The translations under genes were made by a program, and so were the position numbers. Source: Escherichia coli (lineage in GTDB: Bacteria > Pseudomonadota > Gammaproteobacteria > Enterobacterales > Enterobacteriaceae). From it: a DNA stretch of 64,000 bases. The notes beneath the pieces are model-generated. The model saw only the letters and a list, made by a program, of their open reading frames with translations, did no database searches and was not told the origin of the DNA. Positions 57,931 to 62,093 of the stretch are shown here, piece after piece. Location of the stretch: assembly GCF_022846255.1 (NCBI RefSeq), contig NZ_AP025682.1; one strand, 5' to 3'. Numbering within the stretch: the stretch's first letter is position 1; every line of letters begins with the position of its first letter.

Positions 57931-59148
57931 TTACAGCTGATGATAACCAGAAAGGAAACGCGCGAACTTGCTCAAAGACAGCTCGATATCATCGACACGC
58001 GGTAGCGTGACAATGCGGAAGTGATCCGGCCACGGCCAGTTGAATGCCGTCCCTTGCACCAACAGGACTTTTTCCTGCAACAGGAAATCCAGCACCATTT
58101 TCTGATCGTCGTGAATGTTAAAGCGTTTGGCGTCGATTTTCGGGAACATATACAGCGCACCACGAGGTTTCACGCAGGAAACGCCCGGAATATCGTTGAT
58201 CAATTCCCACGCGCGGTTACGCTGCTCATAAAGACGACCGCCAGGGGTAATAAATTCACTGATGCTCTGATAACCACCCAGCGCGGTCTGAATGGCGTGT
58301 TGCGCAGGAACGTTAGCACACAGGCGCATTGAAGCCAGCATTTCCAGACCTTCGATGTAACCTTTGGCGTGTTTTTTCGGCCCGTTCAATACCATCCACC
58401 CCTGACGGAAGCCTGCAACGCGGTACGTTTTCGACAGTCCGTTAAAGGTAATGGTCAGCAGGTCAGGTGCCAGCGGCGCAATGGAGTGATGCTCAGCGTC
58501 GTCGTAGAGAATTTTGTCATAAATTTCATCGGCGAAGATAATGAGATTATGCTGACGTGCAATCTCCACAATCTCCATTAAAAGCTCTTTGGAATATACC
58601 GCGCCGGTTGGGTTATTTGGGTTGATAATAACGATCCCACGCGTACGAGGCGTAATTTTAGCGCGAATATCATCGAGGTCCGGGAACCAGTCAGAGGATT
58701 CATCGCAAAGATAATGCACCGCTTTACCGCTGGAGAGCGAAACCGCTGCGGTCCATAGTGGGTAATCAGGTGCAGGAACCAACATTTCGTCCCCGCTGTT
58801 CAGCAATGCCTGCATTGCCTGAACGATAAGCTCCGATACACCATTGCCGATGTAAATATCTTCCACGGTAACATCACGCATGCCACGAGCCTGGTAGTGC
58901 TGCATGATGGCTTTACGCGCGGAGTAAAGACCTTTGGAATCGCAATACCCTTGAGCGGTAGGCAGGTTGCGTATCACGTCAACGAGAATTTCATCTGGCG
59001 CGTCAAAACCGAACGGGGCAGGGTTGCCGATGTTCAGTTTCAGTACCTTGTTACCTTCTTCTTCCAGGCGTTTTGCTTCTTTCAGCACCGGACCACGGAT
59101 GTCATAACAGACATTCTCTAATTTGCTGGATTTTTCAATGGGGGACAT
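57931..59148 (-). CDS. alaA: Glutamate-pyruvate aminotransferase AlaA (YfbQ)
   Basis: 405-aa class I aminotransferase (…NGLSKTYRVAGFRQGW… PLP-lysine region). Confidence 0.9.
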   Translation of the reverse strand: MSPIEKSSKLENVCYDIRGPVLKEAKRLEEEGNKVLKLNIGNPAPFGFDAPDEILVDVIRNLPTAQGYCDSKGLYSARKAIMQHYQARGMRDVTVEDIYIGNGVSELIVQAMQALLNSGDEMLVPAPDYPLWTAAVSLSSGKAVHYLCDESSDWFPDLDDIRAKITPRTRGIVIINPNNPTGAVYSKELLMEIVEIARQHNLIIFADEIYDKILYDDAEHHSIAPLAPDLLTITFNGLSKTYRVAGFRQGWMVLNGPKKHAKGYIEGLEMLASMRLCANVPAQHAIQTALGGYQSISEFITPGGRLYEQRNRAWELINDIPGVSCVKPRGALYMFPKIDAKRFNIHDDQKMVLDFLLQEKVLLVQGTAFNWPWPDHFRIVTLPRVDDIELSLSKFARFLSGYHQL

Positions 59149-60064
59149 GAATCTTGACCTTTTTTGCTGTTATCGCCACTCCCTGCCGTGGAAGTCAGCT
59201 TAGAACAATGTACTCCCCCAGGACGGTGTTTTGAAGGTCTGCAGAATAAGATTTTGCCAGAGGGGAAGGCTCGATTGTGCTGTTAATAACTTAATAATGG
59301 CAAAATAATGAGGTGCATATGCTTAATAAGTAATGTTATGTAGTGAATTGTTCTGATTATTAATTGTAAGTGTGGTTTTTTTATCTGTAAGATAATTGTG
59401 TGAAAATGCCTCGTTTAAGAATTCACTACTGAATCGCGATGATGATATTTCCGCATTACGGAGAGTTTAACAGCGTGATGATTTCCGAGGTGTCACAATG
59501 GGGGCAAGGCGTGAAACTATTGTTAAGCGGAATTAATGAATGGGGATGATGCTAATTAATTATTATTTAATATTCAAAAAGGTTTTGTTGTGCTTATTAA
59601 TAATAGAAGATTACTTTGCCTAACATAACATAACTTTGCATCAGATAATTCGCAATGACCCTTATAAATAAAAGGTTTTTGGGGTAAAATGCTTGCATAA
59701 ATGACGGATCCCTGCTCTTGATGCCGCCTCACCATTGCTGTTTGTACGTGTTCGCGTATGACCAGCGATGCTGTACGAGAGTGGAACAAGGACTCACATT
59801 TACATTTATACAAACACGCGCATGTCATAAATAGAAAAGAGTGAGTAACTTAATAGATATGCGATCCCTGAAGATATATTCTGTGATCTACTTCAGGCAT
59901 TATAACGGAACAATGTGAGTCACTTTTTTAGTGCAACTCATATGCATTTTTACTTTCGTCCGGGTTCCGGATGAAACTGCCAGGGAGGCACATTACAAAT
60001 GGAATTGCTTGTTTGTGTGTGCACAGCATTAACCAGCTCAGTATGAGCCGCCAGTAAGTGATAA

Positions 60065-61006
<942 letters not shown>

Positions 61007-61050
61007 TCGACGGACCATAGATAATTTCTGAGACAATAGTGTAAAAACGA

Positions 61051-61088
61051 GCCGCTGGGGGTGTTTTAAACCCCAGCGGCTTTTTTTT
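61051..61088 (+). terminator. Intrinsic terminator after lrhA
   Basis: GCCGCTGGGG / CCCCAGCGGC 10-bp stem with 9-10-nt loop, followed by an 8-T run. Confidence 0.8.
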
Positions 61089-61634
61089 AGTAAAAAGCCT
61101 TCCTCGTATCGTGCAGAACGCACAAAACTGTTCATTTTTCAATCACCAGAGATTCACGTCCCGAACGCACAAATAATCGCCTGAAAAAAATCACCTGCTA
61201 CAATGATGTTAAAAATACGTAAATTTGTTGCTGCGTTTTTGTTATGGAATGACAAAAGCGTGTCACAGATCAAGAAAATACTCTCTTTTGGGGGGAGGAA
61301 TCGACACAAATTCCTGTCAAAATAGACCCGTATTTTTTCCATTGCTTCACAACGGACACGATTCAACAACATCTAATTATCCTGGAGTCGTCAAGGATCT
61401 GGGGTGAAAGGGCATTAAATGCTAATGGTGTTGATATTATGTAAACTAATGTGAAGAAACTTTTGTTAAAGTTGACAAAAGGTTATAGAAAGGAGTAAAA
61501 GACCACATCAATTAGCTGTATAAAAGAATTTCTACAGTGATTGTAAGGTTTTTTTTATTCCTCCCCATGAATCGATGTGGCGTCCATCTGCCGTGAAGAG
61601 CAGTGAATCTGGCGCTACTTTTGATGAGTAAGCA

Positions 61635-62078
61635 ATGAGTATGTCAACATCCACTGAAGTCATCGCTCATCACTGGGCATTCGCTATCTTTCTTATCGTT
61701 GCCATTGGCCTGTGTTGCCTGATGCTGGTAGGCGGTTGGTTTTTAGGCGGTCGCGCACGCGCGAGGTCGAAAAACGTGCCGTTTGAATCCGGTATCGACT
61801 CGGTCGGCTCCGCCCGCTTACGCCTGTCCGCCAAGTTTTATCTGGTGGCCATGTTCTTCGTTATCTTCGACGTTGAAGCGCTGTATCTGTTCGCATGGTC
61901 AACCTCTATCCGCGAAAGCGGCTGGGTAGGCTTTGTGGAAGCTGCAATTTTTATTTTTGTGTTACTGGCAGGTCTGGTTTATCTGGTGCGTATTGGCGCG
62001 CTGGACTGGACGCCCGCGCGTTCACGCCGCGAGCGTATGAACCCGGAAACGAACAGTATCGCTAATCGTCAACGCTAA
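61635..62078 (+). CDS. nuoA: NADH-quinone oxidoreductase subunit A
   Basis: 147 aa, [26 protein letters not shown]... Confidence 0.95.
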
Positions 62079-62093
62079 CCGCGAGGCATTAAG

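Follow-up and report, generated by a model that had tools for sequence, protein, structure and literature searches.

Control of the nuoA-N operon has been under study since 1995, and the closest described system to the region treated here is the lrhA-nuoA region of Escherichia coli K-12. In strain MG1655, a 630-bp gap lies between lrhA (b2289) and nuoA (b2288), with no annotated feature inside it. The experimental data for this region all come from K-12 or EPEC, strains other than the source of our sequence, and they place several activities in the gap. An RpoD-holoenzyme SELEX peak falls in the spacer, with the promoter given as TTGACA-18-TAAAAA (Shimada et al. 2014, PMC3946193), and two ArcA ChIP-seq regions have been resolved upstream of nuo (Park et al. 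2013, PMC3798270). Direct binding and repression at the nuo promoter have been reported for CpxR, whose consensus is GTAAA(N5)GTAAA (Guest et al. 2017, as cited in PMC8831704), and a predicted 21-nt pairing of the small RNA RyhB over the ribosome-binding site and start codon has been validated by compensatory mutations (Chareyre et al. 2019, PMC6497325). A further published study, known here by its reference title, deals with DNA topology and with Fis, which binds the nuoA-N promoter DNA at several sites. [quoted passage not shown]

The same region was analysed in a 64,000-nt stretch of E. coli DNA, hereafter the window, and compared with its counterparts in K-12, in complete E. coli genomes and across Enterobacteriaceae. 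The interval is very probably the standard enterobacterial nuo control region, performing three separate jobs: a terminator for lrhA, a regulator platform with its promoter, and a leader for nuoA. It is real, ordinary and already known, and nothing unusual is hidden in it; the first-pass annotation, which had seen nothing anomalous, came to the same conclusion. The importance of the region here is slight beyond correct annotation, with two additions: a cross-genus map of its invariant bases and a conserved stem-loop in the nuoA leader.

The lrhA-nuoA interval and the lrhA terminator

The interval is bounded by two genes on the same strand:
60068-61006, + strand: lrhA coding sequence, LysR-type regulator LrhA (312-aa ORF; the stop codon ends at 61006)
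61635-62078, + strand: nuoA, NADH:quinone oxidoreductase subunit A, first gene of the nuoA-N operon (147-aa ORF)

The LrhA protein is 99.4% identical to the product of K-12 lrhA, the nuoA DNA is 100% identical to that of K-12, and a NuoB ORF lies 3′ of the NuoA ORF in the window. The spacer occupies 61007-61634 (628 bp), so the control region of about 630 bp drawn by the first-pass annotation is exact, one ORF ending at 61006 and the next starting at 61635. Its description of about 550 bp of AT-rich DNA before nuoA is likewise borne out: the 546 bp at 61089-61634 have a G+C content of 38.3%, against 49.7% in lrhA, 53.4% in nuoA and 51.5% in the whole window.

The spacer is 98.3% identical to that of K-12, and the flanking genes and their order are identical. 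Differences cluster in the first 150 bp, where nine substitutions fall in 61016-61143, and from 61229 to the nuoA start the two sequences are the same save for one base in the -10 hexamer, TAAAAG in the window and TAAAAA in K-12; TAAAAG is the form found in most other E. coli examined. The 2-bp difference in length reflects one A lost before the terminator and one A lost from an A-run in the distal ArcA site, the latter allele being found in 1 of 5426 complete E. coli genomes. The terminator, the -35 hexamer, the ArcA site sequences (the distal one with its one-A deletion) and the RyhB site are common to the window and K-12.

The spacer was found in 5423 of the 5426 complete E. coli genomes, in single copy and always on the chromosome, and its closest match among them is in strain 118UI (99.7% identity). 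Beyond the species, a NuoA scan with one genome per species yielded 80 loci from Escherichia, Citrobacter, Salmonella, Enterobacter, Klebsiella, Raoultella, Kluyvera, Kosakonia, Buttiauxella, Cedecea and other genera. A co-oriented lrhA homologue lies immediately 5′ of nuoA in all 80 species, and the spacer measures 623-634 bp in most of them. Since the spacer is present in nearly every E. coli genome and conserved across these 80 species, its architecture goes beyond what chance would leave.

The first element of the interval begins 43 nt past the lrhA stop codon:
61049-61088, + strand: intrinsic (Rho-independent) terminator of lrhA (12-bp stem 61049-61060/61071-61082, 10-nt loop, T8 at 61081-61088)

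RNA folding of 61040-61100 gave a terminator fold of -29.3 kcal/mol (z = -4.5), and none of 200 shuffled sequences was as stable. Among 79 distinct Enterobacteriaceae sequences, compensatory changes occur at 10 of the 12 stem pairs; the paired fraction of cells is 83%, falling to 31-57% once the partner is shifted by 1-3 columns, and these slid controls score no higher than 0.21 for covariation, compared with 0.525 for the stem in register. The terminator that the first-pass annotation had placed at 61051-61088 is this feature, and fold and covariation agree in making it real and conserved. In the relatives, the hairpin always carries an A-run on its 5′ side and a T-run on its 3′ side, and with an A-run upstream and a T-run downstream the terminator looks bidirectional. 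A simple promoter/terminator scan missed it because the scan accepts only loops of 3-8 nt. The structure is thus real and conserved across Enterobacteriaceae, termination itself being predicted; this conserved element, 43 nt after the lrhA stop codon, would end the lrhA transcript.

The nuoA promoter and its upstream platform

One major promoter is recognised for nuo:
61472-61510, + strand: core sigma-70 promoter (-35 TTGACA 61472-61477; 18-bp spacer; -10 TAAAAG 61496-61501; starts at 61507, major, and 61510)

The -35 hexamer matches the consensus at 6 of 6 positions and the -10 hexamer at 4 of 6, the latter being a poor -10; a strict consensus scan did not call the promoter because it demands T at the final -10 position. 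Start-site mapping in MG1655 lists nuoA starts with 4218 reads (128-nt UTR) and 1744 reads (125-nt UTR) (Kim et al. 2012, PMC3415461, supplementary file 2), and the upstream sequences given there, ending in ...GGAGTAAAAAACCACA and ...AACCACATCA, correspond to 61507 and 61510 in the window. The interval 61439-61505, which takes in the entire core promoter along with the proximal ArcA/Cpx box, is almost invariant across the 80 species, and conservation extends over most of the leader as well. Promoter mapping and regulator ChIP data had been named by the first-pass annotation as its checks, and both exist in print: the former places a strong nuoA promoter at 61507/61510, and the latter, for ArcA, gives two sites in the spacer.

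Two other starts are in circulation. A PBAD-nuoA fusion starts at TCTAATTATCC, which is 61372 in the window (Chareyre et al. 2019, PMC6497325), and the numbering of the published ArcA positions (Park et al. 2013, PMC3798270) refers to two starts, which in the window fall at about 61372 and about 61546. The data set of Kim et al. 2012 holds no start between those of nuoA and lrhA, and none at 61372 or 61546. We take 61507 as the major nuoA start. With three start sites in use (61507/61510, about 61372, about 61546), the picture of one major promoter may be an oversimplification.

In the same data set, the lrhA start site is represented by 11 reads (Kim et al. 2012), several hundred-fold fewer than the nuoA starts, and nuoA has a strong promoter of its own, as the first-pass view of a terminator insulating the operon would have it. 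The conserved terminator and this excess of nuoA reads together argue that lrhA and nuoA are separately transcribed. Both also weigh on a competing reading, in which the two loci form one functional unit, either through LrhA binding the spacer and regulating nuo or through lrhA read-through feeding nuo expression materially. The adjacency kept in 80 of 80 species speaks for such a unit, as does a secondary statement, given without data, that LrhA regulates 'NADH-dependent electron transport' (PMC7242855). Set against these are the strong covarying terminator between the two genes in every genus, the disparity in reads, and the targets that the literature does assign to LrhA, which are others: it is described as a regulator of flhDC and motility, type 1 fimbriae (fim) and RpoS (rpoS/RprA). 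LrhA has no usable motif, and our literature search, whose coverage did not extend to Bongaerts et al. 1995, found neither LrhA binding data nor any text documenting an effect of LrhA on nuo, or the lack of one. That paper (Mol Microbiol 16:521) reportedly saw nuo expression without significant change upon lrhA disruption, which also counts against the single unit. Such a unit is therefore improbable. The remark of the first-pass annotation on a reported action of LrhA upon nuo is unsupported, the sole pointer found being the loose secondary statement, and the idea of LrhA as a known nuo regulator is corrected here, partly on the result reported in 1995.

The DNA between the terminator and the promoter serves as a platform for regulators of nuo. 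A MAFFT alignment of the Enterobacteriaceae loci shows near-invariant blocks at 61206-61215, 61226-61240, 61249-61283, 61290-61302, 61310-61325, 61352-61370, 61408-61428 and 61439-61505, and the platform can be divided as follows:
61089-61205, no strand assigned: variable linker from the terminator to the conserved module (mean identity to the window 0.25-0.43; unconserved between genera, insertions tolerated)
61207-61248, + strand: distal ArcA-P site 'nuoA2', three direct repeats, from the ChIP-seq of Park et al. 2013; coincides with blocks B1/B2
61249-61325, no strand assigned: near-invariant blocks B3 (61249-61283), B4 (61290-61302) and B5 (61310-61325), identity 0.8-0.96 among 81 sequences
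61352-61370, no strand assigned: invariant block B6, ACGGACACGATTCAACAAC, directly 5′ of the distal start (about 61372) implied by the numbering of two papers
61408-61458, + strand: block B7 (61408-61428) and proximal ArcA-P site 'nuoA1' (61428-61458; three direct repeats 11 bp apart)

An ArcA-P operator is defined by TGTTA-like direct repeats, with centre-to-centre distances of 11 bp (or 22 bp), that ArcA occupies in vivo, and both ArcA sites are of this kind. The published sequence of 'nuoA2', TGTTAAAAAATACGTAAATTTGTTGCTGCGTTTTTGTTATGGA, recurs in the window save for one A absent from its A-run, and that of 'nuoA1', GTGTTGATATTATGTAAACTAATGTGAAGAA, is identical and lies at -79 to -49 from the 61507 start (both sequences from Park et al. 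2013, PMC3798270). Inside the proximal site, at 61441-61455, GTAAA-CTAAT-GTGAA resembles the CpxR consensus, with a 9/10 match to GTAAA-N5-GTAAA. The multi-factor promoter region proposed in the first-pass annotation is thus well founded, with two ArcA ChIP-seq sites, reported direct repression by CpxR, the sigma-70 SELEX peak and the RyhB pairing site. Regulation by NarL, IHF and FNR, and three Fis sites, are reportedly described in older work (Bongaerts et al. from 1995 and Wackwitz et al. from 1999). Blocks B3-B5 are read as putative factor-binding DNA, for which NarL, IHF and FNR from this older literature are the candidates. The Fis sites of Wackwitz et al. 1999 may lie in the variable linker at 61089-61205.

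The blocks keep their distances. One inter-block distance is 45 bp in 77 of 81 sequences, that from B3 to B4 is 40 bp and that from B4 to B5 is 22 bp (each in 80 of 80), and the later ones measure 39±1, 65, 23 and 31-32 bp, almost constant even where the intervening sequence diverges. The extra spacer DNA of outlier species consists in every case of large insertions upstream of block B1, a tandem repeat in Intestinirhabdus and palindromic elements of about 120 bp in Kosakonia oryziphila and in one Buttiauxella. Fixed block spacing across the family suggests that the factors bound to this 265-bp module are held to a particular geometry. We infer from the alignment that, on bent DNA, they would work jointly in a set three-dimensional arrangement, the fixed spacing representing phasing. 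The published work on Fis and the DNA topology of the nuoA-N promoter would, going by its title, fit such a geometry. For those working on nuo, the cross-genus comparison provides a map of invariant bases and evidence of fixed spacing.

Conservation of this kind might also point to a separate gene in 61206-61370, encoding a small protein or a small RNA on either strand. A 40-aa ORF at 61203-61325 covers exactly B1-B5, its end coinciding with the drop in conservation, but in most genera, among them Escherichia (E. albertii), Citrobacter and Salmonella, stop codons cut it off after 4-13 codons, and the conservation across its blocks lacks third-position relaxation. The small protein was rejected, the ORF being broken in most genera. 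For an RNA, a G/C-rich palindrome at 61281-61298 seemed covarying by eye and is followed by a T-rich run on the minus strand; set against this, none of its pairs is changed on both sides and shuffled sequences did equally well. The appearance of covariation arises because the G-run permits many pairing registers, and the RNA hairpin, or minus-strand terminator, was rejected for want of a compensatory pair and because shuffles were as good. The Kim et al. 2012 data list no start site between those of nuoA and lrhA, the upstream blocks have no Rfam match, and B1/B2 are already accounted for as a mapped ArcA site. A separate gene here is very hard to credit, and the blocks are best taken as parts of the nuo regulator platform.

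A long-range pairing between GGGGAGGAAT (61292-61301) and its exact 10-nt complement ATTCCTCCCC (61557-61566) was also considered and rejected. Where one arm differs (GGCAT in Citrobacter and Salmonella, GATGAAT in Buttiauxella), the other shows no compensating change, and the pairing is further disfavoured because its upstream arm lies outside a transcript that starts at 61507.

Taken together, a single major sigma-70 promoter (TSS 61507) would drive nuo, with about 300 bp of AT-rich regulator platform upstream. ArcA binds this platform at two mapped sites, CpxR is reported to bind it directly, and NarL, IHF, FNR and Fis are further regulators in the older literature. Through their combined action, nuo transcription would be adjusted to oxygen, nitrate, growth phase and envelope stress.

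The nuoA leader

A transcript that starts at 61507 carries a leader with its own conserved features:
61507-61634, + strand: nuoA 5′ leader, 128 nt (5′ hairpin, U8 tract, CCUCCCC, covarying stem with inner hairpin, then ribosome-binding region)
61620-61646 (bounds estimated), + strand: RyhB pairing site over the ribosome-binding site and start codons, including the invariant UAAGCAAUG at 61629-61637

The window is identical to K-12 across the RyhB site, and the ribosome-binding region of the leader pairs with this iron-starvation small RNA, repressing nuoA translation. Prediction of the duplex with the RyhB core is marginal (-23.6 kcal/mol, a value equalled or bettered by 46 of 1000 shuffles), and folding of the duplex with the whole RyhB molecule gave no informative signal.

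Upstream of the pairing site, the 5′ hairpin has its core at 61516-61521/61532-61537, the U8 tract lies at 61549-61556 and CCUCCCC at 61560-61566. RNAalifold on 74 distinct leaders gave an outer stem, 61577-61584/61611-61618, that encloses a hairpin formed by 61588-61592 with 61598 and 61600-61603. Pairing reaches 97.9% in the outer stem, where three pairs carry double-sided changes (in 15, 14 and 20 sequences), and 100% in the nearly invariant inner hairpin. For the whole leader structure it is 89%, compared with 19-45% for slid controls. The 5′-proximal hairpin is weaker, with compensatory changes at 4 of 6 pairs, 68% of cells paired and a mean z of -1.0 in per-species folds. CCUCCCC and the stretch at 61629-61637 within the RyhB site are invariant or nearly so. 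An upstream ORF in the leader, AUGAAUCGAUG..., was rejected as a candidate: it is without a Shine-Dalgarno sequence, and some genera have GUG as its start codon or lack the codon altogether (UUUAAA).

These features raise the question of whether the stem-loop (61577-61618) and CCUCCCC constitute a dedicated cis-regulatory RNA element, a platform for a protein, Hfq and a small RNA or a ligand, that would act on the translation of nuoA or the stability of its mRNA beyond occlusion by RyhB. The well-paired outer stem with its three covarying pairs is what such an element would display, and the near-invariance extends to the inner hairpin, its loop GUGAAGA/AGCAAGA context, CCUCCCC and the rejected upstream ORF sequence, so that the unpaired bases of the leader are more constant than structure alone needs. 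The leader has no match in Rfam at E ≤ 1 (the sole match in 59100-62100, at 19.6 bits against a gathering score of 97 and with E = 0.17, overlaps the terminator on the minus strand and is taken as chance), and our literature search found no paper on a nuoA leader element. Against this reading, the invariant sequence could equally serve at the DNA level, as an operator lying 3′ of the promoter, or provide RNase E/Hfq context to the established RyhB regulation; the predicted fold leaves the ribosome-binding site unsequestered, none of the data point to a ligand or protein, and the covariation amounts to three pairs among related sequences. A dedicated element is thus possible but unlikely. It is similarly doubtful that the leader holds an undescribed, Enterobacteriaceae-wide structured RNA that is a regulatory module in itself, for example by docking Hfq or a protein, rather than a passive leader. 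Such an element, if real, would set the translation or decay of the 15-kb nuo mRNA, and the conserved stem-loop is a cheaply testable lead for nuo regulation.

Comparison with other respiratory promoter regions

In its general plan, the nuo region resembles further respiratory promoters of E. coli that take several inputs. Those of cydAB, cyoABCDE, sdhCDAB and pdhR-aceEF-lpd also have long AT-rich upstream DNA with more than one ArcA direct-repeat site by ChIP-seq. Repression by CpxR is common to nuo and cyo, and repression by RyhB to nuo and sdh. The nuo region differs from the cydAB, cyo, sdh and pdhR type in its upstream neighbour, which is co-oriented and ended by a terminator, whereas theirs is a divergent gene. 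Across 80 species, the distances between its regulatory blocks stay fixed along a stretch of about 265 bp, a property examined for nuo alone among these promoters. The nuoA-N promoter region of Pseudomonas putida serves the same operon and is likewise under nucleoid-protein control, with several Fis sites upstream of nuoA and two promoters; it belongs to another organism, has other neighbouring genes and bears no detectable sequence relationship to the region described here.

Block spacing upstream of nuoA and spacer insertions in other species

The near-invariant DNA blocks of 61206-61477, upstream of nuoA, are set at distances of 45, 40, 22, 39, 65, 23 and 31 bp, which are nearly constant across about 80 species. 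This fixed spacing persists in these species even over linkers whose sequence is not conserved, and in the outlier species every large spacer insertion sits upstream of block B1. In Intestinirhabdus alba, B1 and the −35 lie 256 bp apart rather than 265 bp, approximately one helical turn less. The lrhA-nuoA spacer of this species (locus L018) measures 937 bp, a length due to a unit that is repeated three to four times in tandem upstream of block B1:

L018, spacer bases 1-520: tandem repeat with a unit of ~78 bp, containing …GCGCTGGTGTTGAAAAACGGCCAGCAGCTTTATCTGCGCGCCGCTCCAGGGGCGGTGGCTTTGCGAAACATATCTCCCTCT…

The loci of Kosakonia oryziphila and a Buttiauxella assembly (L063 and L079) carry inserted imperfect palindromic elements of ~120 bp, resembling ERIC or MITE sequences, within the first ~130 spacer bases, after the stop codon of lrhA and before the terminator. 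A contig named ‘Chryseobacterium sp. 18061’ (L062) harbours an lrhA-nuoA locus typical of enterobacteria and closely similar to that of ‘Citrobacter sp. 18056’, both originating from one project; the contig looks like a case of contamination or mislabelling.

Spacer divergence within Escherichia coli

Within E. coli, the lrhA-nuoA spacer is far more diverged than the flanking genes, sharing 94.0-94.4% identity with strains AH20J067 and 8178 (loci L002 and L003, 1201-1829), compared with 98.3-99.3% for lrhA, nuoA and nuoB. The changes relative to these two strains form a dense cluster at 61400-61450, overlapping block B7 and the proximal ArcA site. A spacer identity of 90-95% was found in 1043 complete E. 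coli genomes, and the divergent allele is E. albertii-like at several positions.

Variation also affects individual elements. The window carries G as the final base of the −10 hexamer, at 61501 (TAAAAG), as do the four other non-K-12 E. coli that were aligned and E. albertii; the equivalent base is A (TAAAAA) in K-12 and the majority of other genera. Within the distal ArcA site, the A-run at 61211-61215 comprises five residues in the window versus six in nearly all E. coli, and an exact match to the five-A allele was retrieved from a single one of 5426 complete genomes (strain CUVET19-1426); the shorter run represents a rare allele or else stems from a sequencing error in the homopolymer.

Start sites and leader of nuoA

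Three differing start sites are in circulation for nuoA. The pair at 61507/61510 corresponds to the nuoA starts mapped genome-wide (Kim et al. 2012), from which the two others, at 61372 and ~61546, implied by the numbering used in Chareyre 2019 and Park 2013, differ. The ~61546 position lies directly before the U-tract of the leader and could be a processing site or a reverse-transcriptase stop. The distal position adjoins an invariant block:

61352-61372: invariant block ACGGACACGATTCAACAAC, adjoining the distal start at ~61372 implied by the numbering of two papers

No recognisable −10 hexamer was found in this block, and no start is recorded at ~61372 by Kim et al. 2012, whose profiling also reports a minor start at 61653 (40 reads), 18 nt within nuoA and attributed to nuoB.

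Further downstream, the nuoA leader contains at 61577-61618 a covarying stem around an invariant hairpin, preceded on its 5′ side by an invariant CCUCCCC at 61560-61566. This element had no match in Rfam, and no paper describing such an element was found in a literature search.

The divergent alaA-lrhA spacer

On the other side of lrhA, the divergent alaA-lrhA spacer (59149-60067) is 919 bp long with 38% G+C, and its GC skew is strongly positive over 59200-59700. An lrhA start with a 371-nt leader, equivalent to ~59697 in the window, was mapped by Kim et al. 2012, and the spacer has been singled out as a long multi-factor region (Shimada et al. 2014).
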